A stretch of 64,000 nucleotides of DNA from an uncultured Nitrososphaeraceae archaeon (GCA_963837175.1 CAWIMJ010000025.1:64713-128712), one strand, 5' to 3'. Positions 14,872 to 64,000 are shown, counted from the first letter of the stretch. Program-made: numbers and translations. The notes: generated by a model not told the origin, from the letters alone.

Positions 14872-15335
14872 ATGGATTCTGATTCAGCTTTGAATTACTA
14901 TGTTGTAAATCTATATTGCGTAAAAAACAAAATAGTTTGCACCAACTACTAATCTGCACTTTTCAAATCCTATAGGATCATTTCTTCAATTGCTTTTAAT
15001 ATTATTATCTTCTTACATATCTTCTATTGGTATATACGATAAATTCAAATCTCATATTATAAGTTGAATTAGCTTAGATATTTAAAATCTTGTCGTGAAT
15101 AAATTATATATTTTTTGTCAAAAGAAAAAGATCTTCATTCATTTTCATTTAGATACTATTCAGAGTAATAATTCATTTGTAGTATGGGTATAATTTTCGA
15201 TGGATAGCTCATATGACTGTAATTGGGACTTGATAAAAATGGAGATAATAAAATGTTAGAAAACACATGTCATTGTGTATCTAAGAACGTGGCCACAATA
15301 GGGGCCTATGATACTGATATTGATCACATATTATA

Positions 15336-46890: not shown

Positions 46891-47838
46891 ATGGAACCCG
46901 CTGAACAACAAATACCATCATCAAGCAAATCAAAGGATCTAAATGGTGTATCCTATTGTGATCAATGTAATAGCGAGTGTGTTATTTTTGATATGGTCTC
47001 TAGTGAATATGTCTGCAGCTCTTGTGGTTGTGTCGCAAATACTGAAATTTTTACAAGTGAACCCGATAGTAGCCATTCGTCGCAATCTACGTATAGTGAT
47101 AGATCAAGGACAGGTATGCCAGAGTCTCTTGCGATTCATCATAAGGGTTTGTCTACATTAATTGGAATTGGAGATACTGATGCAAGAGGAAAGGCCCTCG
47201 AACCATCTCAACGAATCAAAATACAAAGGTTAAGAACATGGAATAATAGATCACAACTTAATGATTCGATTTCGAGAAATTTAGAGAAAGCTTTAAAATT
47301 TCTCAATAACTTTGGAGATAAGTTGTATCTCAGTCAGGCAGTTATGGAAAGTGCTGCATATATTTATCGAAAAGCTGCATTAAAAAAACTTGCAAAAGGT
47401 AGATCAACTCTTGGCTTAGTCGGCGCTGCACTTTATGCTGCCTGCAGAGAGACAGCCACTCCGAAAACAATTTCAGATGTAGCAACTGTTTGTAATTTAT
47501 CCAGCAAAGATGTAATGTCTCACTACAAATTGATTCTCAGAGAGCTGTCTTTACAAATGCCTGTTCTTCATGGACCTGATTATGTAACCCTTATCGCAAA
47601 TAGATTAGATTTAAGCGAAAAAACAAAACGTGAAGCTTTGAAAATTTATTCCAGTGTTCAGCAAAATAGGATTTCAATAGGAAAAAATCCAAGGGCCCTG
47701 GCCGGTGCGGTGATATATATAGCTTCACACAATTGTAACGAGTTTCTGAGGCAGGTTGAGATCTGTCAGGTAGCAGATATATCCACTGTATCATTGAGAA
47801 AGCGTTGCAAGGAAATAAAAGGAACTCTTGAAATCTGA
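46891..47838 (+). CDS. tfb: Transcription initiation factor IIB (TFB paralog)
   Basis: CDQC...CSSCG Zn ribbon, SRTG.P, KGLST, LRTW, KGRS...ALYAACR and GKNP motifs. Confidence 0.93.
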   Translation: MEPAEQQIPSSSKSKDLNGVSYCDQCNSECVIFDMVSSEYVCSSCGCVANTEIFTSEPDSSHSSQSTYSDRSRTGMPESLAIHHKGLSTLIGIGDTDARGKALEPSQRIKIQRLRTWNNRSQLNDSISRNLEKALKFLNNFGDKLYLSQAVMESAAYIYRKAALKKLAKGRSTLGLVGAALYAACRETATPKTISDVATVCNLSSKDVMSHYKLILRELSLQMPVLHGPDYVTLIANRLDLSEKTKREALKIYSSVQQNRISIGKNPRALAGAVIYIASHNCNEFLRQVEICQVADISTVSLRKRCKEIKGTLEI

Positions 47839-52160: not shown

Positions 52161-54012
52161 CTGCTTCACGACGCCCAGAAGTAGAAAGAGAAGTATTACA
52201 GGCACAAAGCGAACATAAAAAATAATACCATATTTTCATAGAGGTGTAAGCAAAAATGAAATAAAGTGGGATTTAGGCAGGCTTCAGGGAATTGAATTTG
52301 GGACGATATTTGAGCTGCGCAGATATCTTTATTCAAAGATTACAAAGATTCAAAAATAGTGTCTCAGGACCAAAAAAAGAAGAAGAAAGCAAATAAAATA
52401 AAGAAAATAATAAGAAAGGAATACAAAGTCCCTATTAATCAGTTATTTGAAGTTATAGTGGGGATATTAGCTGCTTAATTATCTGGTTAATCAAGTCCTA
52501 TCTGGTTTTGTAGTATACACTTCCGAAAGTTATCTATATTTTAAGATATATTACTCTAGAAAAAATACAATTATAATAAAAGTTACTACAACATCAATTT
52601 AGCATTTACCTCGAAAGGCTTGGAAAACATAAGATAAAGAAGAAAAGAATGTGATTCAGCATTGATCTAATTTCTCTACTATTTTCTATCCTATATTCAG
52701 TGATAATATCTCCTTTGATAGCAGTTTTTTTCTGTCTTTATCTTTTCTTCTTTCAGCTTATCTTATTCTCGACATTGTGATATAATATTATGCATGAAAA
52801 GGATTCATAATTAAGTTGCTCCATTATATTATAACGAGATTTTAGGCTCAAAAGTCAGGTTGTTATTATAGATATCTGTACAGCTATTATGTAGTATGGC
52901 GCTCTTAAATATTACATTACAAGTATAGCTTTCAAGTTAGACATTAAAATAATGCAAACATGAGCCTTTGGCAGGAATTTTGAAGCCCTTGGTTATCAAG
53001 ACTTGTCATTTAGTCATGTCTAACCATGGCATCGGCTCCAAATTCCCGCGAATTTTTGTTCTTCTTAAAAATATACTAAAATATATAACAAAAGATATAT
53101 TCTCTGACAGAAGAATTAAAGATCATTCGCCATCTGTTTTGCCTATATTACATTTTATCCAGTTACTAACTATATTTTCTAACTTGTTAGTACTCTCTCC
53201 TTTGCTTTGATCGAACTGTAAAAACCTACAAGAATAAGGAGTGAAAATAAGGAAAATTATCGATATGTAATTTAGGAATGAGCGATCAAAGATTCAGAAA
53301 AAACTGTAAAATACTCATTTCCTTACTATGTTTTAGTAGAAATTTCGCAAAGATTTCGAAGGGTATGCAATACTGGAATTACAAACTACTAATATTGGAT
53401 AATATTTGTGATTCCTATATTCTTATACATGTAGTGTAACCTTTAAATTTTTTAAAAACCTATGGCGCAACTTTCTGCATCGTCGCCGAACGCTCAAGAT
53501 ATTTCGCTATTTTAAGAAGGTCTTCAAATGGGGTATTAAGTCTTGTATTATGGATAATCTCTGAAGCTGCCTATCTTTTTTCTTGCTTTAATGGCCTATA
53601 TTTAACAAGATGTGAAGGTGGAGTTTTTGTCTCGAGTTTCTCTAAATTTCCTCTTTTTCTTTTACCATTCATATTCATAAAACATTTCTCGGTTTTTTGT
53701 TGTCCTATTTCATTAGGATCTTTTCCATAATGAATATGTCCATAACAAGATGGAGAAGGGATTATGAGCCTATCTTTTCTCTTTCGTCAGGATTATAAGC
53801 CAATTCATTTAGAACATAGAACATAATGAATCATCCTGATGCAGCTTATAGGAAATCATATTTTTGATATACCTTCAAAAATGGTATGCTAAAATAAATT
53901 ATTCTTCTTTATCTTCTTAATCAGCGACTTTTATTTCATATAACAAGCAAAAGGATAAAGACAATCTGAAAATTATTATTGCATGACAATGTTACATTTA
54001 TCCACTGATTCT

Positions 54013-54474
54013 TCACTTTACTACCATTACAGGACATGTTGCGTAAGTAACTACTCCCGATGCAACACTTCCAAGCAACATCTTTTTGAAGCCTGATCTT
54101 CCTCTTGTTCCTATTATTATTAAATCGACTCCGTGAGATTCTGCATACTCTACTATTGCGGCCTCAATAGACATTTGACTGTCAATAATTTCTGTTTTTA
54201 ATTGGACATCGTTTTGTTTTGCAATCTGGATAAGCTTCTGAAGCCATTGTTTAGCTTCAAGTATCTCTTCTCTTTCTTTTGGATGGCTTAATTCACCTTG
54301 AGGGGTAACCAAACCATACGAAGACAATGGAATACGTATGATAGTTAAAGCTATTAGTTCGGTGCCATCTTTTTTTGTCATCTCTATTGCATAATCTGCC
54401 GCATCCATTGATGCTTGGGAACCATCTATTGCAACCAGTATTTTTGAAAAGTTTCCTTTAATTTTAGAAGTCAA
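54013..54474 (-). CDS. Universal stress protein (UspA family)
   Basis: KILVAIDGS and DLIIIGTRGRSGFKKMLLGSVASGVV.YATCPVMVVK motifs. Confidence 0.93.
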   Translation of the reverse strand: MTSKIKGNFSKILVAIDGSQASMDAADYAIEMTKKDGTELIALTIIRIPLSSYGLVTPQGELSHPKEREEILEAKQWLQKLIQIAKQNDVQLKTEIIDSQMSIEAAIVEYAESHGVDLIIIGTRGRSGFKKMLLGSVASGVVTYATCPVMVVK

Positions 54475-55110
54475 TTTATTTATTATCAGTGTTTAATATA
54501 CACGGGCTATTTAATAAGTCTCAAATAAAATAATAATAGTGTTTATTAAATAAAGATATCTACTATAATAGAGCTAGCAATAATATTTATTTTAATAGAA
54601 TCAGATAGGAATGTAATCTCATGTTATTCTACATATGATTTAAATATCAATACAAAATAAGCATTATTATAGAGTTCCTATAGCGGTTCCAGCAACAGCA
54701 TTGCCATCAATAAGTAGTACATCATCAACAACATTTAATGATATCAGCACAGATAAAAGAGAAGTATTCAAAGGACCTATTACAGTTGCAGGTGTTGAAG
54801 GAGATTGTGGAGAAGCAAAAATAGCAGTAACGTACAAAGCGCAAACATTGGATCTGTGCGAAGATGACGAAAGACCATTTTGAAGAACCAAGAACAGATC
54901 CAATAAAGTCTCAAGGATCAGTATGAATTGTAAAAAGGGCAAACTGGAGTCCGAGAATCCTATAACATTTGTTAAGTTTCTGGAAAACCACAACGATGCA
55001 AGACAATAGAAAATTCCTATTCAGCAATGGAAAGTATCTCCAACTATCAAATATGAAAATTAGTGGCAGAATTATACCCCATCCTTTATCAATATCATTA
55101 TAAAAATAAA

Positions 55111-55158
<48 letters not shown>

Positions 55159-55768
55159 TGCTTACAGAAGACATCTCAAAAGAGCTCGCAAAACACATAT
55201 GCGTTTAGGTAGCATTTTCGAATCAGAATCCCGAGACCGCCAGCTTCAATTAATTGCCTACATGTTTTGTCTCAGAATCTTCTATTTCTTGGCTATAGAA
55301 GATGTCTTCATATTGTCGCAAAATATTGTGTTCATATGGTGTACTTTGAAATCAACAATTTTCTTTGCTTTTCAGTTCTCCTCATTGGTAACGTTTGCGT
55401 CCATCGGAGAAGTGTAAAGCTTACTCTATATTAATAACTTCGCTAAAATAAAGTGCGTGTAAAAATCCGTGTAATAATTTTAAATTCGTGTAAAGCGTTG
55501 TATTACTGGGCTACACTAAATAATACTTGAATATATAGCTTATTGTATCACCGCAGTTTTCTTGTACAAATCTAATAATCTCTGGACTACATATGACATA
55601 GAATCTCTATATTTAGCCATTTCTACTAGCTCCCTTGTGTATGCGGATCTATTCTATAAACTTGATAGATTTTTCTGGCATGTAGTACTTTGTAATACAT
55701 CATAATACATAGTTTACGTTATAATATACGGTAAAGTTTATGTCGTTATATATGGTAAACTTTAGATT

Positions 55769-56053
55769 GTAGAGTTATGTAAATTGGCAAAGAAAGAGGG
55801 ATGGATATGAGCAGGTAGTTAATGTTATAGATATTGCTGCTAATAAACTTCCACAGATGGAAGGTCTCTATAGACAAGTCAAAGATGAGTTAGATAATAT
55901 GTAACGCACGGGACAATATTTATCAAACGATATACAAGCTTTGAAGAATAAAATTTCAATATTAGATAAAACCGCATTCTCTAGTGAACAAGAGTGTAGG
56001 AGCAAAGAACAACAATCACAACCTCTTACTATTCAAAAGGATAGAAGATTCTG
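55769..56053 (+). pseudogene. Fragment of a coiled-coil hypothetical protein often seen in Nitrososphaeraceae mobile regions
   Basis: KLAKKEG..EQVVNVIDIAANKLPQMEGLYRQVKDELDNM*...LSNDIQALKNKISILDK with an internal stop and a frameshift. Confidence 0.45.
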
Positions 56054-56062
56054 ATCGAACTT

Positions 56063-57052
56063 TTGAGTATAAAACAAATAAGCCTTGGCCGGGATTTCGA
56101 CCCGGGACCTTTTCCTTACCAAGGCTGTATAGGCTTCTCCAACCAAGGTAATATAGCTGGCTCCAAATCCCAACCAAGGCTCCTATTTACTTCCAGCTCC
56201 ACTTTAAATAACGCATTACCTCGTAGAGCTTTGTCAGATCCTTCTTTCTGGAATAAATTTGAAAACTATGTTAAGAACAACCTTAGCCGCCATACAGCAA
56301 AATGTAGAATATCGTATGCTAAGACGTACATGCATGTTCTGATAGAAGGAGATGCTCAAGAGCTTTTGACATTATCTAATGACAAAAGAATACACGTTAT
56401 GAAAGCTTTGGCAGCGTTATCCAAATACTTAGGCTGTTACGACCTATGGAAGGATATCATTGAGCGGTATAGTCTAAAATGGTCAAATGAAGATGCAATT
56501 CAAGTATTTCAGAATATGACCGATGTTGACCATGATTTTAGTTCAATGATAAAATGGCTCAATGATTCATATTCAAAATTACCAGCTTCATATGGAAATA
56601 TCCTTTTATTTAATGCACTAACTGGTCTTAGACCGGAAGAGGCTATCCAAAGTATCAAGATATTGCATACTGAGCCAAATAATTATCTTAAAGACAACAC
56701 CATTTTAGAGCACTACAAATACCCATCTATTTTTATTAGGAGGACTAAGAAGGCTTACATAAGTGTAGTGAATAAGACAATTTTAAGTCTAGCAAAACAA
56801 GCCGGTGATCATAGCTACAATGCCCTTAGATTATTGATAAAGCTCAAGGGACTTGATATGAATATGGCTTTTTGCAGAAAGATATTTGCTACTCATCTTA
56901 GAAATAATACTATTGAACAAGAAAATATTGACTTACTGCAGGGAAGATTACCAAGATCTGTATTTGCAAGGCATTACTTCAGACCTGATTTTAATTACGA
57001 TAGAATAAAGGATTTGGTAAATTCGTTATATCATTCCCTAATTCTTCCTTAA
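56063..57052 (+). CDS. SSV1-type tyrosine integrase, C-terminal fragment int(C)
   Basis: TGLRPEEA, TKKAY, CRKIFAT, DLLQGR and ARHY catalytic motifs; the 5' end reads through an antisense tRNA half (SLGRDFDPGPFPYQG). Confidence 0.9.
   Translation: MSIKQISLGRDFDPGPFPYQGCIGFSNQGNIAGSKSQPRLLFTSSSTLNNALPRRALSDPSFWNKFENYVKNNLSRHTAKCRISYAKTYMHVLIEGDAQELLTLSNDKRIHVMKALAALSKYLGCYDLWKDIIERYSLKWSNEDAIQVFQNMTDVDHDFSSMIKWLNDSYSKLPASYGNILLFNALTGLRPEEAIQSIKILHTEPNNYLKDNTILEHYKYPSIFIRRTKKAYISVVNKTILSLAKQAGDHSYNALRLLIKLKGLDMNMAFCRKIFATHLRNNTIEQENIDLLQGRLPRSVFARHYFRPDFNYDRIKDLVNSLYHSLILP
56081..56124 (-). repeat. att site: 44-bp copy of the 3' half of tRNA-Thr(GGT)
   Basis: Reverse complement CCTTGGTAAGGAAAAGGTCCCGGGTCGAAATCCCGGCCAAGGCT contains the anticodon loop GGT, T arm and acceptor 3' strand; no 5' half present. 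Confidence 0.88.
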
Positions 57053-57272
57053 TATCTGCAGAATGACAAATGTGTGATTTGAACCCGCATTGTAGTTTAA
57101 ATCTTTTGGCAACTTATACCAACGATGTAATCCTGGATGCTCTATCGACTACTCTTCGGATCGTCTATAGACGGATAGCTTAATGTTTTCTTATTTCTAT
57201 AAAAATACACGGAGTATTAATAAGATATATTTATGTTCGACTTAATCCCAATATAGCGCGGACTACCACTCT

Positions 57273-59963
57273 TTGAAACTCCAAAGAAAATGTTGCTATT
57301 TAACGATATTTGGAATTGCGTCATTTCTATGTTTATCCATAATAATGATGCCACATTACATATATGCACAAGAAGTATCTTCAGATTTGTCAATATCTGC
57401 TATTGGCGAGATCAAGGTAGGTAAGACTCCCACTAATATAGTTGTTAATACTAATACAGATACGGCGTATGTCTGGAGCTATCTTATAAAAAATACTTCT
57501 ATCTCTGTAATAAACGGTACAGAAAATAAAGTTGTAGATATTATACCAGTTAGGGAATTAGTTGATTTAGTTTTCAATCCAAAGACAAACAAAGGATACG
57601 CAGCCAGTGAAATTAATAATACAGTAATAGTAATAAATGGTAGCAACAATAACATTATCAAAAAACATCTTAATTTATCTGGAAGTAAAATAAGTTCCCT
57701 ATCTGTTAATCCAAGTGCGAATGAGGTTTATATCCTTAATTCTACTTATGGAAAAGGATCAATCGATACCATATCTGTAATAGATAGTGCAAGTGATGAG
57801 GTAGTAGATCTTATTCGAATAGACAAGGGTTATGATATAATGGCGGTTAATCCAACACTCAACAAGATTTATCTTACCAATCAAGATGATAAAACAATAT
57901 CCGTAGTGGATAGAAAAACAAAGAAGATGTCGATTATTCCAACATCAGGCAGTTTATTAGCCATGTTAGAAGTAAATCCAGCTAATAACAAGGTATATGC
58001 ATCCTTTCACGAAGCCAACAGAATCTTAGTAATTGACAGCAATTGGGATACTTTCGTCACCACTTTTATAGCAGATAATAAGACTCCAAATTTTAGTTCA
58101 GCTGGCGTTTTAGCCATGGGAGTAGATCCTAAATCAGATATTTTGTATACGGCAAATTCTGATACAGATAGTGTTTCTGTAATAAATGGATCGACGGGCT
58201 TGGTTTCAGAGATTCCTGTTGGAAAAGATCCCAAGGATATAGCTGTCAACCCAATAACTGGCAAAGTCTATACGGCTAATACTGACTCCGATAGTGTCAC
58301 AGTTATTAATGCATCTATTTCTAGAATGAAATCTCAATCCAGCAATACCTCTGTAGTTGATATCCCAGGAATAAAAGTAGGTGCTGCACCACGTGATATC
58401 GTTATCAACCCAGTTACAAAAATGATTTATGTGGCTAATCTTGCATCTCATACCGTGTCTGTCATAGATGGATCGAATAATAAAGTAACAAGAGATATAC
58501 CCATTATAAAAGACACACTAACAGGTACACCATTATTGGATATATCTGTTAACCCAGTTACAAATACGTTATATGCTTCAGGAGAACAAAATGTTAGCAT
58601 AATTAACACCTCAAATTACACTAAAGTAGATAACATTATAAGCACAACAACGGACATCGACGTTTCTTCTGGAACAAATAGAATTTATTTAGGCGAAGAA
58701 GATCTTATTCGTGTAATAGACGGAACATCAAACAAGCCATTGGCTGACATACGGCCAGATGATTTTATAGCAGAGGGCCAAGGTTATTTTAGGGAAATAG
58801 GGGCGGTTGCATTTGATAAAGATTTAGAAAGAGACAGAATATATGTTTCTACTATCCGCTATCTAGAGAATAAAGAACAAGAGACGCTTTATATAATAGA
58901 CTTCGATCCTGAAGATAAGAATAATAATAATATTACTCTTGAGACGGCGGGTAGAATACCATTAGAAGAAGAACCTTCCGCACTAGCTGTTAACTACAAT
59001 ACTCAAATGGCCTATGCGGCGAATCAATTTTCAGATAGTGTTAGTGTAATAGACTTGTATTTTCAGAAAGTAATAGCAAATGTTCCAGTAGGAAATGGTC
59101 CAGTAGATATAACAATTGATCCGGATACTAATCTAGTATATGTTGTTAATCAAGATAGTGATAATATTACTGTAATAGATGGCTTTCATAATAAAGCTGT
59201 AACAACTATACCTGTGGGGAAATCGCCTTACAATATAGCAGTTAATTCCGATACTAATATGATCTATGTGTCTAATACTGACTCTAATACTGTCTCTGTA
59301 ATAGACAGTTCGATAAATAAGGTCTTATTACCAGGAAACGTATCATTTAATATCATTCCATCTAACTCAGGTCAGATAAAATGTAACCATAAAGAATATC
59401 CAACAAAACAGTTATTTAGAATAGCATTTGCTTCACAATGTGTAGCTGAAGCCAATAGAGGGTTTCAATTTAGCAGCTGGACTGAAGATTTAGGTAACAA
59501 TTCAACTAAAACAATATCTGGGTCTATGGTTTCTGATGCTCCTTTTGATGTCCTTTTGAGGACCTTTGAATTTAATCTTTTTGACAAAGGATCATTGTTA
59601 AACATGACTAAAAGTGGTTATTTTACGGCTAATTTCAAAGAAGTGCCACCACCCATACCACAACAATATATGATTGGACTATATACTCTAGCAGTAACAG
59701 TTTTTACGGGATGGCTTGTGCCGAATATAGCACGTTGGGTAAACTCAATATTACAAAGAAGACATATGATGCAATTTCTTACAGATATAGAGACATTAAA
59801 TAAAGATAAAAATGGCAATAACTATTTACAAAAATCAGAAGGACTCAAAAATAGAATTACACATGCATATGCAAAAGGAAAGATAAATGAGCAACATTAT
59901 AATTTACTAAACAAGAAGATTTCAGATTATGAGAATAGTAGCCCTCATACAAATAAAACCTAA
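57273..59963 (+). CDS. YncE/YVTN-type beta-propeller repeat surface protein with a C-terminal TM anchor
   Basis: Signal peptide; many I.VG..P..I.VNP.T..VY.AN..S..VSVIDG repeats; TM near aa 800; cytoplasmic tail ending YAKGKINEQHY. Confidence 0.9.
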   Translation: MKLQRKCCYLTIFGIASFLCLSIIMMPHYIYAQEVSSDLSISAIGEIKVGKTPTNIVVNTNTDTAYVWSYLIKNTSISVINGTENKVVDIIPVRELVDLVFNPKTNKGYAASEINNTVIVINGSNNNIIKKHLNLSGSKISSLSVNPSANEVYILNSTYGKGSIDTISVIDSASDEVVDLIRIDKGYDIMAVNPTLNKIYLTNQDDKTISVVDRKTKKMSIIPTSGSLLAMLEVNPANNKVYASFHEANRILVIDSNWDTFVTTFIADNKTPNFSSAGVLAMGVDPKSDILYTANSDTDSVSVINGSTGLVSEIPVGKDPKDIAVNPITGKVYTANTDSDSVTVINASISRMKSQSSNTSVVDIPGIKVGAAPRDIVINPVTKMIYVANLASHTVSVIDGSNNKVTRDIPIIKDTLTGTPLLDISVNPVTNTLYASGEQNVSIINTSNYTKVDNIISTTTDIDVSSGTNRIYLGEEDLIRVIDGTSNKPLADIRPDDFIAEGQGYFREIGAVAFDKDLERDRIYVSTIRYLENKEQETLYIIDFDPEDKNNNNITLETAGRIPLEEEPSALAVNYNTQMAYAANQFSDSVSVIDLYFQKVIANVPVGNGPVDITIDPDTNLVYVVNQDSDNITVIDGFHNKAVTTIPVGKSPYNIAVNSDTNMIYVSNTDSNTVSVIDSSINKVLLPGNVSFNIIPSNSGQIKCNHKEYPTKQLFRIAFASQCVAEANRGFQFSSWTEDLGNNSTKTISGSMVSDAPFDVLLRTFEFNLFDKGSLLNMTKSGYFTANFKEVPPPIPQQYMIGLYTLAVTVFTGWLVPNIARWVNSILQRRHMMQFLTDIETLNKDKNGNNYLQKSEGLKNRITHAYAKGKINEQHYNLLNKKISDYENSSPHTNKT

Positions 59964-60471
59964 TTTGGCATTCGTAGAACAATGTAACAAATTTTATTTT
60001 GTAAAAAACAAAAAATAGCAATATCTGCCAGAAAAAATATATCCCTAATTTCTAAAACTATTACCTGACGTCGACCATCTAACACAATCTACCATCTCTT
60101 AAAGACACACGCTTAGAGAGACTTTTTCCTGGATTATTCAAAGGAATGCCAAGAAAGGCTGCAACATAGAAGACAAACAAAGATATGCAGCTTAGAACAA
60201 CAGCTCAAGGAAGTCGGATTCAGATTATTGAATATTTCGGTAAAAAATATCTGCAAATAATACTATAATGGTCGAATATACTATCGAGACAAATGCAGAA
60301 ATCCAAGAATATAGCTGTACATTAATTGTTCATACACCTATAGATAATATTCTATAATTACTTTTGATGATTGAGACAGTATATATCAATGCATTAATGG
60401 CAAAGAAGAATGATGCTTTCTCTAGAACGAACTCAATACATGACATTCTTTACTAAAAGTAATTAATTGCC

Positions 60472-60690
60472 TACTTTGCAAATCTTTCCATGAGTAAAAC
60501 AAGATTATCTTTTACTTGTAAAAATTCTTTCTTAATTTCTTGGAGTTCCTTAGGATTAAATAATTTCTTAAGCCTACTTGTACTTTCATCATTTAATACC
60601 CGTTCGACATTAAAATCCCTGCTTAATATTGATTCAAATAACGCCTCTAGAAATCCTTCTTTAATTCTCTCTTTTGATATGCTCGCCTTC
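60472..60690 (-). pseudogene. Start-less helical ORF fragment
   Basis: About 72 open codons (KERIKEGFLEALFESIL...LVLLMERFAK*) bounded upstream by TAG with no start. Confidence 0.3.
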
Positions 60691-60787
60691 TAATATTGAT
60701 CTATTTTTATCTTGGAACGAAACAGCTGAGTGCACATAATAATTTCTCACTATCTTAAAAAATCTCTTTTGTTGTAACGGATCAGAA

Positions 60788-63392
60788 ATGGCAATAATGG
60801 AGATAATGCCAAGAGCGAGCATTATAATATTTCAAGTTACTGAGAACATGAAAAACATTGGGATTAAAGATTTCATTCTCAATAGATTTGACTTTGAAAT
60901 TACTCTTATAAGCGGCAGAAAATGTTGTGTGTTATTTTCGTCAAAGAAGACATCGATATCAGAACATGCCAAAAGTATAGAAAAAAAATTATGGCATGAT
61001 ACTAACGTTAAAACAGGAGAAAACGCCTTTGGATCTGCAATAGCAGATATCGAAGATCAGTTGATCCGTAAAAGAGATGAGCTGTTCAAGATCTCAACTG
61101 AAGGTCATACGGCCGGAGATGTAAATACAGAGGATCCTTCAAAATCTAAGTTCAAAGAAGATGTTACTAACCTAAGGAACCAATTCAAACAATCAGGTAC
61201 AATCTTCCAGGACTGGCAATCAATAATCGCAGAAAAATATGAAAATTTACGAAAGATAACTGTCAAACATTATCCCGAAGCATTACCGTTTTTAGAATCC
61301 TGCTTAGCAGTAAAATCGATTCTAAACATTGAGCACATCACGCTGCCATTTATCGGTGTAATACTGGCTGCGCCAGCATCAATGAAGACAATGGTTATTC
61401 AGCTTTTTAGAAAGTATCCTACTTCTTTTTATAGTGATAATTTTACAGCCAATTCACTTGTTTCCCATAATTCAGCATTTACAGAAGAGGAGTTGCAGAA
61501 GGTCGATATGCTTCCTAAAATGAGAGATAAATTAGTTTTAACTCCAGAGCTAGCTCCAATATTTACATCCAAAGAAGATGATTTGCATAAGATACTTGGC
61601 ATAATTACGAGAATTCTTGACGGAGATGGATTTGAAAGTGATTCTGGTGCACAAGGTCATCGTCATTATGGAGATACAATGTTTGTATGGATTGGAGGAG
61701 CAGTGGAGATACCATTTAGAGTTTGGAAGGTGCTTGGCAGTTTAGGACATAAGATCTATTTTCTAAGACCTCAATTGTCTGAAAAGACTATAGAACAACT
61801 CAAACAAATAGCAAAGACTAATGATTTTGGAGCTAAATTCAGAGAGATTGAAGAAGCTCTACTTGATTATCTTAAGTATTTTGACGCTGCACCTGAAACT
61901 CTGCGGGATACACTGACAGATAAAAATGGAATTGTAAAGATTAGATGGAACCATGAACTTGAAGGCGAACAAGACAAAGCAACCGGATATATCGCAGAAG
62001 TTGCCAAACTACTTGCACATTTACGTGGAAGTGTATACATTTCAGCAGCAAAACCAGCAAAAATAGGTCGTAGATATGATAGCACTAGTGATAATAACAC
62101 TCAAGAGCAACAAGATAGTAGCAATTTAGTTCAGATTGAAGGTCAGGACTACAATACAGACCTACCTATAATAGAAGGTCCATCAAGAGCAGTAATTTTA
62201 GAGAAACTTAGCAATTGGACATGCAATTTCACAGGGAAGAAATTCTATAGGTTTGCAAGACATTCCTATGGTTATTAAGGTCGCCTTATCAACAGCGATG
62301 GTTTCTAGAGTGAAAGTTTTTCATTTATTACTGAAGAATAGAGGGGAGCTGAAGACTACTGATATTACAAAAGGACTCAGGGTTTCAGAGCCTACTGCCA
62401 GACGTACGATGAGAGAGTTTTACGCCTTAGGAATCGTAGATATCTCTGCAATTTCAGAGTATAGTAATGCTGAACTGAAAATATCCTTAAAATGTGAGTA
62501 TGATTGGTTCAAGAGCCAAGGATTTGAAAAGCTCAGAGACGGATTTGTTCCAGCTAATAATGATGGAGCAAATAACAATGATAGTAACGTTATAGATTCA
62601 TCTAATGGCAAGGTGAACGATGACAATAATAATAGTGCCGCATCAGGTCAAATAACAGTTTTATCTTATGAAACAGATGATAAACAACAGCAATGAGATA
62701 ATAATCAGAATTCAGGAGCATTTGACAGTCACAGGCTGAAAGTGAAATCACCTCCAGAGACAGAGCAAGAAAATAATGATAATTCAACAAAATGTGACCG
62801 ACCATTACTAGAAGAAGACAAGAACAACAGTAATGACGAAAGCTCCTCTCTAAATATTAATTCTACTTCAGTTAATTCAAAAGGAGAAGAATCCGATAAT
62901 AAAATAAATGATGATTATAGCTCAGATTCAATTGTTAGTAGTAGTAATTCTGAAGGAGGTTCTAATGATTATAATAATTGTGAACAGTTATGTAACAACA
63001 AATCAATAGAAGATAATTCTCATAGCGTAGAAGAAAATAGTGCCTCTCTCTGGGGGGCAAATCATTTTCAGCCTTTGACTCAGTTACACGATCACATACA
63101 ATCATCACCCGACGAAGGATTGAACGATGCTACAAAAGGAGAAGAAGAAAGTAAGGTACTTGAAGAAATTGTTGCTACGATAAAGGAAGTTAACGGTTTC
63201 CAGATTGCACTTAATAGTGCTATACAATCTGCATATAATAGAAATGAACAGGTAAGAACCTACTTAGGAGACAAGCTAACACAACGTGAGAATAAGAGCG
63301 TAAAAAAACTGTGCTTGAACATAATTAGACATCCGAATATAGAGGTAGTCAAACACAAGCCGCAATTAGTTGTAAGATGGTCTTCGCTGTAG
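60788..63392 (+). pseudogene. MCM-like AAA+ ATPase + wHTH + low-complexity linker + C-terminal domain; one gene broken by a frameshift (about 62200) and an in-frame TGA (62694-62696)
   Basis: Walker A variant AAPASMKT and Walker B variant LVLTPE. PSRAVIL continues as RNLAIGHAISQGR in the 62253 frame; HTH VSEPTARRTMRE; ORFs 62253 and 62742 share a frame. Confidence 0.65.
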
Positions 63393-63454
63393 ACAGAGCA
63401 ACACAGTCATGACCAACCTATCACAAGTCACGAAAGTGAAAGAGCAATAATTCA

Positions 63455-63760
63455 ATGACTGCTACTGCAAAAGCCATTTCTCAAGAATATATCTCACATA
63501 GAAATGAGCTATTAAATGATATTTATGCAGCTATAGATATAGAATATAGAGTAAATGAGAATGAAAGTAATAACCTAAAACCATACACTATTTTTGCAGT
63601 AGCAATAGTCGATAGTCTTGGTATTGTGAAGGTAAAACATGAATCAGATTTTGCTAATTGTAAATATCCAGAAAAAGAGCTTGTACAATGGGCAATGTCT
63701 GAAATATTAAAATATAAACTTACAATCGGCTGGTATAGCAAAGGAGTTAGACTGGCATAA
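63455..63760 (+). pseudogene. Truncated N-terminal exonuclease-like part of a family B DNA polymerase
   Basis: AAIDIEY (ExoI DxE), IFAVAIVDS and EKELVQW...ILKY.LTIGWYS; ends before any polymerase motif. Confidence 0.5.
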
Positions 63761-63775
63761 AGATAAGACCTATCT

Positions 63776-64000
63776 ATGGCCAAATGCTGTTCCTGTGGTC
63801 AAGGTATCAATTCAACATATATCAGAGAAGGCTCAAAAGGCTTAATGCGAAAGGTTGGATTTTACTGCTCTTATTGCGATATTTATTGTGATTCAACATC
63901 CGAAAAACTGTACACAGTTAATACTAAAACCGTATACAGTAATATAGCGACAAAGTCAGAAGAGCAGCCACTAACCAAAAAAGTGAGCATAAAACAACCA
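63776..64000 (+). CDS. Putative integrase N-terminal fragment int(N) with Zn ribbon (runs off the window); not in the ORF track
   Basis: MAKCCSCGQG...GFYCSYCD...KKVSIKQP, open to the window end; final codons match the SIKQ just upstream of att at 56066-56077. Confidence 0.65.
   Translation, partial: MAKCCSCGQGINSTYIREGSKGLMRKVGFYCSYCDIYCDSTSEKLYTVNTKTVYSNIATKSEEQPLTKKVSIKQP

Follow-up and report, generated by a model that had tools for sequence, protein, structure and literature searches.

A probable SSV-type split-integrase element at tRNA-Thr(GGT) in an uncultured soil Nitrososphaeraceae archaeon

The DNA analyzed here, a stretch of 64,000 nt from an uncultured Nitrososphaeraceae archaeon (the window), ends at the last nucleotide of contig C25. 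Its right-hand part contains the following features, with coordinates counted from the first nucleotide of the window:

55036–56046, left flank X′, relic of an older insertion and member of a multi-copy repeat family
55789–56046, truncated pseudogene that ends X′, from a multi-copy HTH/coiled-coil gene family
56047–56080 (+), 34-nt tail before the att, interpreted as what is left of the 3′ end of a previous int(N)
56063–57052 (+), int(C), tyrosine integrase frame of 329 codons
56081–56125 (−), attL, antisense to int, covering tRNA-Thr(GGT) from its anticodon stem through its 3′ end and matching C56:65568–65524
56159–56181, inverted-repeat arm between the att and the integrase body, a degenerate copy, in sense, of T-arm and acceptor end of the tRNA
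57273–59963 (+), beta-propeller cargo gene, YVTN-type repeat protein of 896 aa, frame intact
60788–63392 (+), replication gene with an AAA+ MCM-like helicase core, a winged helix and a C-terminal domain, broken
60788–62278, 62253–62696 and 62742–63392 (+), the three ORFs into which the helicase gene is divided
63455–63760 (+), remnant of a family B DNA polymerase (PolB), the first 101 of about 665 codons
63776–64000 (+), int(N), Zn-ribbon module (CxxC...CxxC) of 75 codons, open at the contig end

The attL is identical in 43 of 45 positions to the 3′-terminal 45 nt of the tRNA-Thr(GGT) gene at C56:65495–65568, with mismatches at 56098 and 56113, and the identity is bounded by the 5′ strand of the anticodon stem. 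A previous examination of this DNA without database searches (the sequence-only reading) had described a tRNA-Thr 3′ half of 44 bp lying antisense in the 5′ end of an integrase ORF, which is borne out except that it spans 45 nt; this length is within the approximately 40–50 bp of SSV-type att sites, and relatives have sites of 45, 46, and 57 nt. ARAGORN detected a single tRNA-Thr(GGT) gene in the 58 contigs of the assembly, that on C56, and there is no tRNA-Thr within the 64-kb window. Pattern and sequence searches revealed no third att copy in the assembly. There is next to no probability that the resemblance to a tRNA arose by chance or reflects a tRNA pseudogene without any tie to the integrase: a 29-nt att pattern, allowing up to three mismatches, occurs in only two places in 3.81 Mb, attL and the C56 tRNA, against no matches for the reversed control pattern; the same tRNA-derived stretch precedes int(C) in the same-genus relative L004; and pieces of tRNA genes are found 5′ of int(C) throughout the integrase family. 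The 23-nt arm at 56159–56181 is 83% complementary to positions 56081–56103, with 55 nt between the arms, and a similar stretch occurs 3′ of the att in L004, L048, L050, and L051.

The integrase frame is open from 56045 to 57052, following a stop codon at 56042–56044, with the first TTG at 56063, no ATG before codon 90, and a conserved body that starts around codon 60 with an FW motif. The attL lies inside this frame, as attP lies within the int gene of SSV-type elements, and is read in the same frame as in the int(N) ORFs at tRNA-Thr(GGT) in L064 and L069. Int(C) matched phrog_5127 (7.6e-11) and, with 24.4 bits against a cut-off of 27, PF16795, a family built on the SSV1 catalytic domain and found in 113 of its 120 best homologs. 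In total we retrieved 853 homologs, and the integrase body is present in 51 of the 151 genomes of the family searched. A PDB search with the single int(C) sequence did not yield any recombinase; a profile of 20 family members matched, among recombinases, only entries for the SSV1 integrase catalytic domain (3uxu, 4dks, and 3vcf, with E values from 1.4e-3 to 1.7e-3). In alignment A1, R190 is nearly invariant and K229/K230, R272, R295, and Y305 are invariant or nearly so; we take these to be, from their roles in the literature, the catalytic Arg, Lys, Arg, Arg/His, and Tyr positions, and R272, R295, and Y305 align with the SSV1 chain in the profile comparison. The sequence-only reading had described R..K..RK..GR..Y residues as intact. 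An AF2 model of int(C) had a pLDDT of about 30 for residues 1–50, was ordered from approximately residue 51, and had the fold of tyrosine recombinases, including the SSV1 Int catalytic domain (TM 0.55–0.62, normalized by target length); Foldseek ranked archaeal XerA first, with no match reaching E ≤ 0.001. The frame at 56063–57052 is a tyrosine integrase of the PF16795/SSV1 Int type, an assignment that is borderline for the sequence alone and comes through its homologs.

The last ORF of the window lies 6.7 kb downstream of int(C), on the same strand. Zinc-finger families stayed below threshold in Pfam searches with the Zn-ribbon module, and nothing was found in PHROGs or NCBIfam; its homologs occur in 27 of the 151 family genomes. 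We located this module in 62 places, and for 16 of them an integrase match lies on the same contig at a distance of no more than 40 kb. The strand is shared in 14 of these cases; in seven of the 14 the module is 81–301 nt upstream of the integrase, in seven it is 3.7–34 kb downstream, and in none is it far upstream. In relatives, the module directly precedes the integrase body or else follows it on the same strand at a distance of kilobases, where it runs into an antisense tRNA. A tRNA predicted by ARAGORN overlaps the 3′ end of the module in nine of 30 fetched loci, and in two of these nine it is an antisense tRNA-Thr(GGT) read in the frame of the window int(C), with the tRNA-coded peptide SL(G/D)RD starting after 74 (L064) and 73 (L069) residues. 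The closest homolog, P0121 (70% identity to the window int(N)), runs straight into an antisense tRNA-Thr att, which it reads in a frame other than that of the window. These comparisons support the identification of the last ORF as the Zn-ribbon int(N) of this integrase family.

Relatives with both ends assembled display the split directly. The single-contig genome G106 contains 46-nt direct repeats 11.1 kb apart, whose virtual excision generates an in-frame int(N)-att-int(C) of 395 aa. Likewise, locus L088 has on one contig attL, int(C), the Zn-ribbon int(N), and an attR that overlaps an antisense tRNA-Val, in an element of 6,024 nt whose N and C halves are in frame across the att; L089 shows the same layout over 10.5 kb. 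Additionally, the distal Zn-ribbon ORFs of L061, L063, L068, L071, and L073 read the att in the frame used by int(C) in L026 and L028. The in-frame excision in G106 and L088, together with the Zn-ribbon int(N), supports the earlier proposal that this is an integrase of the SSV1/pTN3 type, split upon integration.

We consider it likely that the window contains an integrated and decayed element with an SSV-type ("suicidal", type I) split tyrosine integrase at tRNA-Thr. In the free circle, the integrase would be a single frame of 398 codons comprising, in this order, the Zn-ribbon N-module (63776–64000), the 45-nt attP antisense to tRNA-Thr(GGT), a linker modeled with low confidence, and, up to 57052, the core-binding domain and the catalytic domain. 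The gene would be split when attP recombines with the 3′ portion of the tRNA gene, the boundary of identity being in the anticodon stem: att-int(C) would remain at the left end, and int(N) would form the right end and read on into the restored tRNA. The integrated copy would then not produce a full-length integrase, so that its excision would need a related integrase in trans. Being to the right of the relic of an earlier insertion (X′ and the int(N) tail), the element would be the tRNA-proximal member of an array. Observed directly are attL, int(C), and int(N), with their order and strand, and the splitting of the gene in relatives; the right junction, a single polypeptide in this element, and the position of the crossover are inferred.

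The integrase could instead be whole, with about 274 aa from the TTG at 56228, and simply lie beside the att, following a pNOB8-type or lambda-type logic. Family conservation begins only at the FW motif, and 16 of 18 shorter homologs that we pulled start 5–20 residues before its conserved W, several with "MS", as a complete shorter protein would; in L026, L028, and L065, moreover, the Zn-ribbon ORF directly 5′ of int(C) ends in the att in a different frame or with stops, with an int(C) ATG at the att edge, and the low pLDDT of the first 50 residues of the model also fits a start further downstream. However, distal Zn-ribbon ORFs share the att frame with the matching int(C), including those of L064 and L069 with the window; the halves fuse in frame across the att in L088 and G106; the frames from the tRNA into int(C) are open for 61–100 codons in all four sense-type loci; and the window frame lacks an early ATG. 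On this evidence we regard a whole integrase as quite improbable, and a start at TTG 56228, which was our first reading, was dropped after the comparisons with G106, L088, and the Zn-ribbon modules. With a whole integrase, the Zn-ribbon ORF would be a separate small gene, such as a regulator or directionality factor, abutting the att by chance.

Under the split-integrase reading, the right end of the element should coincide with the end of the contig, where int(N) is still open. The right att is predicted to start at 64001, because the last 18 nt of the window match the 18 nt before attL in 14 positions, a score reached by no other 18-mer among the 63,982 in the window; it would occupy 64001–64045, giving an element of 7,920 nt (56081 to 64000). 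Int(N) has 75 codons up to this point, compared with 74 and 73 before the att in L064 and L069, and with the att placed at 64001 the joined N-att-C frame has 398 codons with no internal stop. The size of about 8 kb and a right junction just past the window, as the sequence-only reading had anticipated, fit with an int(N) on the strand of int(C) at the opposite end and a contig that stops at the predicted att edge, but the junction itself is absent from the assembly. There was no suffix-prefix overlap of at least 12 nt between the 3′ ends of C25 or C56 and any contig, and joining C25 to another contig was discarded since no contig end overlaps its end. Four public soil metagenome runs yielded only short, low-depth contigs over 54000–64000; in each of the four, loose ends at 56125 lead on into the 5′ half of the tRNA, nothing usable came from the 64000 end, and a circle junction was not seen among these short contigs. 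The runs carry no weight in either direction.

The left flank bears on what adjoins the tRNA. X′ is 94.96% identical over 1,091 nt to the end of contig C56 (66599–65524), while other copies of the repeat, at 75–93%, are on C12, C9, C52, C8, C32, C2, C36, and C16; intact members of the HTH/coiled-coil family, of about 250–380 aa, are on C2, C36, and C16. The 34-nt tail is common to C25 and C56 only, and the tRNA-Thr(GGT) on C56 is preceded by X and not by int(N). Most simply, the C56 tRNA, next to which the left flank recurs at 95% identity, would represent an allele without the element. Co-assembled variants are common: in the assembly, stretches of 800 nt or more form 172 near-identical pairs, amounting to 364 kb, and many of these are contig-end overlaps of 5–12 kb at 97–99.6%. 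A real element could also end at 64000 away from the tRNA, at a third att followed by a further, unassembled element ending in the X next to the C56 tRNA. The arrangement X-att-tRNA does exist on C56, G041 has a contig with two copies of the att at this tRNA, separated by 27.6 kb, and X belongs to a repeat family that could break contigs. Against this, a single genome would have to carry two copies of X at 95% identity that share both the truncation point and the 34-nt tail; neither a third att nor another int(C) or post-att spacer is present in the assembly; and co-assembled variants are common there. We therefore find this arrangement rather unlikely; it would amount to a three-member array in one genome and not to two alleles. 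As to the left end of the older relic, in same-genus genomes the downstream flank of tRNA-Thr is a conserved DNA methylase gene, of which there are two homologs here (on C17 and at 53293–53902 of the window), either of which may be the ortholog of the flank gene.

The cargo of the element combines an intact gene with broken replication genes. The beta-propeller protein matched the TIGR02276 repeat (9.4e-43) and PF10282 (1.8e-18); by eye, it also shows an N-terminal signal-like and a C-terminal hydrophobic segment. Relatives of the helicase, of 675–825 aa, align in order over the three ORFs, with a frame change around 62200, where a 2-nt deletion shows as a gap with respect to L085, and an in-frame TGA at 62694–62696. 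The helicase family has a consensus Walker A motif GxPSSxKT and AAA_lid_2 in 12 of 51 members; the AF2 model (pLDDT 85.3) had MCM subunits as best folds, at E 3e-4, and a search of viral contigs with the helicase ORF yielded nothing. The PolB remnant is 85–91% identical to the N-termini of proteins of 664–668 aa, with identity ending directly after the motif GVRL; among its matches, 54 of 73 contain PF00136, some also PF03175, and a first metagenome scan with the remnant retrieved nothing. The helicase and PolB module of the sequence-only reading is thus real by homology, but both genes are broken. Its other statement on content, that there are no recognizable capsid or conjugation genes, agrees with Pfam and NCBIfam searches, which found no such families in the element ORFs, and with PHROG searches, in which only the integrase among eight ORFs had a match. 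The GC content is 31–37% both inside and outside the element, with no contrast. Since its replication genes are broken, the element is probably a fossil, with the beta-propeller gene and the two halves of the integrase still open.

Self-disrupting integrases have been known mainly from hyperthermophiles (Sulfolobales, Thermococcales, and Archaeoglobales) and from a few Methanosarcinales. For Thaumarchaeota, we found one noted case in the literature, the cryptic element NitEve-E3 integrated in Ca. Nitrososphaera evergladensis, whose SSV1-like integrase is split in two according to the part of Krupovic et al. (2019; PMC6563490) available to us; the type can fairly be called little described in soil ammonia-oxidizing archaea (AOA), but not new. 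The integrase family is common in the genomes searched, where it targets many tRNA genes and has the Zn-ribbon N-module in common, and its halves are annotated as unrelated short genes; recognizing them makes it easier to set the limits of islands in AOA genomes and is relevant to the persistence of self-trapping elements. We tentatively suggest, with more doubt than confidence, that the element is part of a large, largely unrecognized lineage of suicidal integrases in soil AOA. In that case, Int(N) would be the identity of arCOG08677, a "Zn-ribbon domain protein" that, according to Table 1 of PMC6563490, is one of the genes most often found in integrated elements of Thaumarchaeota. Some family members have the tRNA 3′ half in sense and an extra, inverted tRNA 5′ half within the frame, and the part of PMC8371274 available to us contains no description of this design. 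It would be a new att design, in which a spacer bearing paired CTTAC-N8-GTAAG motifs separates the sense-oriented 3′ half of the tRNA from an inverted 5′ half, and with it integration could perhaps change its orientation or its target.

Among known systems, a casposon or protein-primed PolB element was discarded, with no Cas1 match in any ORF of 56063–64000 and integration by a tyrosine recombinase at a tRNA. In terms of the cryptic thaumarchaeal elements of Krupovic et al. (2019), the locus has an integrase, replication genes, a predicted second att, and no capsid, packaging, or conjugation genes. As in pNOB8-type (type II) elements, a tyrosine recombinase acts at tRNA genes with direct repeats of part of the tRNA; however, those elements keep int whole, whereas here the frame is cut by the att and the stop at 56042–56044, lacks an ATG before codon 90, and has its N-module at the other end, 6.7 kb downstream. 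The TTG at 56228 leaves a weak alternative in this respect. The suicidal integrases of pTN3, pT26-2, and TKV from Thermococcales, as far as the available part of PMC8371274 describes them, share a plasmid-like or cryptic nature, PF16795, many tRNA targets, arrays, and inversions between related copies, but come from another phylum and temperature range. With the fuselloviruses SSV1 and SSV2 the element shares an attP inside the int ORF, an att of 40–50 bp matching a tRNA gene read antisense, and, as predicted for the window, the separation of int(N) from int(C) upon integration, and with SSV1 also the C-terminal motifs (RK.., ..QGR.., and ..HY) and the catalytic fold; it differs in its mesophilic soil host, in an N-module that is a Zn ribbon without Pfam matches above the cut-off, in a low-confidence linker of about 40 codons between the att and the conserved body, and in having no virion genes. 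A further parallel in description is NitEve-E3, likewise from a soil AOA, with a split SSV1-like integrase, no virus hallmark genes, and an AAA+ helicase (MCM in that case), as portrayed in the accessible part of PMC6563490. Compared by that description, the helicase here is MCM-like but divergent and includes a winged helix, and it is accompanied by a PolB remnant, both genes being broken; the window element stands as a well-delimited further example from a soil ammonia oxidizer.

The frame open at 56045–57052, which follows a stop at 56042–44 and has its first TTG at 56063 and its first ATG only at codon 90, is that of a tyrosine integrase. Its product matches phrog_5127 (7.6e-11) and, below the cut-off of 27, PF16795 (24.4 bits), a domain present in 113 of the best 120 of its 853 homologues; the source names recorded for these homologues point to Nitrososphaeraceae or Thaumarchaeota, and the integrase body is present in 51 of the 151 family genomes searched. 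A 20-sequence family profile run against the PDB retrieved, as recombinase matches, three entries of the SSV1 integrase catalytic domain only (E 1.4e-3 to 1.7e-3). The AF2 model (mean pLDDT 71.8) has values of about 30 over residues 1–50, with order beginning near residue 51, and resembles tyrosine recombinases, XerA being the top match (E 1.4e-3) and the SSV1 catalytic domain giving a TM of 0.55–0.62, normalised by target length; the structure search with this model gave no match at E <= 0.001.

The tRNA-Thr 3′ half that the sequence-only reading saw antisense within the 5′ end of this gene was confirmed. Positions 56081–56125 (attL), inside the open frame, are the reverse complement of the final 45 nt of the tRNA-Thr(GGT) gene, with two mismatches (56098 and 56113), and identity stops within the 5′ strand of the anticodon stem. 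ARAGORN identified three tRNA-Thr genes in the assembly, with the GGT type found once (contig C56, 65495–65568), 1,031 nt away from the contig end. A 29-nt att pattern, allowing up to three mismatches, has two sites in the genome, attL and the tRNA on C56, and a control pattern has none. The proposed element comprises, from left to right:

56063–57052, integrase frame containing attL, here int(C)
57273–59963, YVTN beta-propeller protein, 896 aa, intact
60788–62278, 62253–62696 and 62742–63392, ORFs corresponding to a single helicase gene of 675–825 aa in relatives
63455–63760, remnant of a family B polymerase, first 101 codons of ~665 aa, 85–91% identical to full-length proteins
63776–64000, Zn-ribbon ORF (CxxC...CxxC), here int(N), 75 codons, open at the contig end and last ORF of the window

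Our first view was that the integrase is whole, not split. No conservation is seen in the family ahead of an FW motif near residue 62, and 16 of the 18 shorter homologues retrieved start 5–20 residues before it. The longer homologues have N-terminal extensions that resemble translated tRNA, sense or antisense. Comparison with whole genomes changed this view to a split integrase. In the single-contig genome G106, a sense-type relative adjoins a tRNA-Glu gene whose 3′ half is repeated directly (46 nt) 11.1 kb downstream; the far-end ORF enters this repeat in the same frame as the frame that is open from the tRNA to int(C), and virtual excision yields a single frame of 395 aa. Locus L088 holds attL, int(C), a Zn-ribbon int(N) and an attR (44/45) overlapping an antisense tRNA-Val within 6,024 nt of one contig; its virtual junction is in frame, leading from the Zn ribbon through the att to the FW motif, and the sole stop in the joined frame is the one inside int(C) already flagged by the integrase-body search. 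The same layout occurs over 10.5 kb, with 57-nt repeats, in another single-contig genome (L089), where the start of the int(N) ORF was not located and int(C) carries two stops flagged by that search. Against a split, the frames differ or contain stops in the three loci (L026, L028 and L065) with a Zn-ribbon ORF directly preceding int(C), and the closest int(N) homologue (P0121; 133 aa, 70% identical) uses another frame through the att.

Homologues of the Zn-ribbon ORF were found in 27 of 151 family genomes, at 62 places; for 16 of these, an integrase match lies on the same contig no more than 40 kb away (the pairing used 76 integrase rows; the rows omitted are on contigs without a Zn-ribbon match). 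Fourteen of these pairs are on the same strand and two on opposite strands. Among the 14, the Zn-ribbon ORF lies 81–301 nt upstream of int(C) in seven and 3.7–34 kb downstream in the other seven, including the window, and in none is it far upstream. In nine of 30 fetched loci the Zn-ribbon ORF overlaps at its 3′ end with a tRNA predicted by ARAGORN, which is antisense in seven (Gln, Thr twice, Arg, Gly and Val twice) and sense in two (Arg), and tRNA-like peptides terminate many further ORFs from this set. At two tRNA-Thr(GGT) loci (L064 and L069) the att is translated as SL(G/D)RDLDPGPLPYQG, which is the same reading as in the int(C) frame of the window (SLGRDFDPGPFPYQG). The assembly also contains three decayed, frameshifted copies of a longer int(N) (C29:~14,900–15,300, C45:1,145–1,720 and C34:94,866–96,461), in which the Zn ribbon is followed by a '..YEYKIKSIIK..ELPLIL..WAGYGDG..' segment; each runs into a truncated sense tRNA-Thr fragment of 23–27 nt and adjoins duplicated ORFs of ~500 aa that, as judged by eye, would encode a PQQ-dependent dehydrogenase.

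A second architecture of the same integrase family occurs in L005 (G017), L006 (G036), L008 (G112) and the G106 region (L036/L037). There, a complete tRNA in sense orientation is separated by a spacer of ~100 nt, bearing two CTTAC-N8-GTAAG motifs, from an inverted tRNA 5′-half copy, which int(C) follows. One open frame covers this entire stretch, and three genomes of the same genus have the arrangement at the same tRNA-Thr(GGT). The frame from the tRNA to int(C) is open for 61–100 codons in all four sense-type loci inspected (L005, L006, L008 and L010).

The right junction had been predicted immediately after the window; since this spans 64,713–128,712 of a contig of 128,712 nt (C25), base 64000 is also the final base of the contig. 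The end of C25 overlaps with no other contig, and there is no third att copy in the assembly. Three results bear on the prediction. The final 18 nt of the window match the 18 nt preceding attL (56063–56080) at 14 positions, a score unique among the 63,982 other 18-mers of the window. The att-coded peptide is preceded by 74 and 73 int(N) residues in L064 and L069, respectively, compared with 75 codons ahead of the contig end in the window. Finally, P0121 passes from the Zn ribbon into an antisense tRNA-Thr att 16 residues past a motif shared with the window int(N), which has 19 residues from that motif to its end. With an att beginning at 64001, joining the two halves would give an uninterrupted frame of 398 codons, and the element would be 7,920 nt long. 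The split-integrase reading stands as observation and as interpretation, except for the right junction itself, which is unassembled. The 240-aa called form of the window integrase (cluster P0001) is also recorded from a contig of 857,956 nt, so an assembly with much better contiguity exists for this or a near-identical organism.

The helicase claimed from sequence alone was supported: its family shows a Walker A motif (GxPSSxKT), a winged helix and, in 12 of 51 members, AAA_lid_2, and the AF2 model (pLDDT 85.3) is closest to MCM subunits (E 3e-4), followed by SF3 helicases. The gene has a 2-nt gap at ~62200, compared to L085, and an in-frame TGA at 62694–6; these lesions may be genuine or may stem from errors in a noisy assembly. 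PF00136 is present in 54 of 73 matches to the polymerase remnant, and the remainder of this gene is missing. In metagenome relatives, the helicase gene is followed by the polymerase (L085), and the polymerase by an ORF that by eye is primase-like (L083). Another polymerase fragment (C16:38245–38544 and 38790–39110) resumes where the window remnant ends and adjoins an ORF that looks, by eye, like part of an unrelated tyrosine recombinase. The integrase was the only one of eight ORFs searched with a PHROG match.

C56 is oriented as expected when reversed and set after C25: the tRNA is on the minus strand, and pdxT (SNO, 8.8e-46) and the last part of pdxS follow it. What precedes this tRNA, however, is a sequence, X, and not int(N). 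X (1,091 nt) extends to the last base of C56 and is 94.96% identical to window positions 55036–56125, the first 70 nt being identical and the rest containing 39 substitutions and three indels. It combines a repeat-family member with a pseudogene derived from a multi-copy HTH/coiled-coil gene, with the same truncation point in X and in its window counterpart (X′, 55036–56046), and a 34-nt tail common to both after the pseudogene resembles an int(N) end. In our reading, an older element, now decayed, left X′ as its tRNA-proximal end, and the present element would have inserted into the tRNA beside it at a later time. In the assembly (58 contigs, 3.81 Mb, completeness 91.5%, contamination 3.2%), 172 non-self sequence pairs share at least 88% identity over 800 nt or more, totalling 364 kb, and many of them are contig-end overlaps of 5–12 kb with 97–99.6% identity; the assembly gives the impression of combining close variants or unmerged haplotigs, which would inflate its size. 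C56 is most simply explained as coming from a co-assembled variant whose allele lacks the element. Alternatively, a single genome could carry a three-member array, and arrays at tRNA-Thr(GGT) do exist, as in G041, where a single contig has two att copies separated by 27.6 kb. The limits of the element are unchanged under either the allele or the array reading.

The G041 att copies (contig C25 of that genome; L033, L034, L047 and L051) are partial and in direct orientation, and belong to an array in which int(C) is lost from a sense-type element and retained in an antisense-type one; the retained int(C) is 78% identical to that of the window, and its element also carries a beta-propeller gene (30% identity). 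The G041 element has an intact HTH/coiled-coil family member of 384 aa. Proteins of this family are ~250–380 aa long, carry an HTH-like segment at the N terminus and contain long stretches resembling coiled coils. The family has these copies in the assembly studied, several of them broken:

window 55789–56046
C2:13250–14000
C36:25400–26200
C16:32230–33000
C8:96300–97050
C29:18000–18700
C12:209650–210400
C45:1–480

Farther left, window positions 53293–53902 have no long ORF and are 73–80% identical to a DNA methylase gene, with a better copy at C17:39898–40869, that is found immediately downstream of tRNA-Thr(GGT) in three genomes of the same genus; this region may mark the old left edge of an insertion hot spot. 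Genes for USP (54013–54474) and TFIIB (46891–47838) are nearby, both of kinds included as common cargo of thaumarchaeal elements in Table 1 of Krupovic et al. (2019; PMC6563490). An (ATA)n-type microsatellite at 55084–55162 is 14 nt longer than in the C56 copy, and public-run contigs break at it.

A full-text literature search found no paper on suicidal integrases of Nitrososphaer- archaea, and the supplementary tables of PMC6563490 could hold further cases. Among the thaumarchaeal elements already described (74 integrated elements from 20 genomes), that work singles out NitEve-E3, with an SSV1-like integrase that is split upon integration. A 2021 review (PMC8371274) associates suicidal integrases with PF16795 and with the SSV, pTN3 and pT26-2 families. 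For its dataset, integrases of the pTN3 and pT26-2 families and of archaeal viruses were added to a conserved-domain set; the review passages covered here name no thaumarchaeal suicidal integrase. Badel et al. (2020; PMC7253208) list integrases from Thermococcales, Archaeoglobales and five Methanosarcinales. The element studied here is a decayed, further example of this already known kind, and the family-level picture obtained from testing it is of more interest than the element itself.
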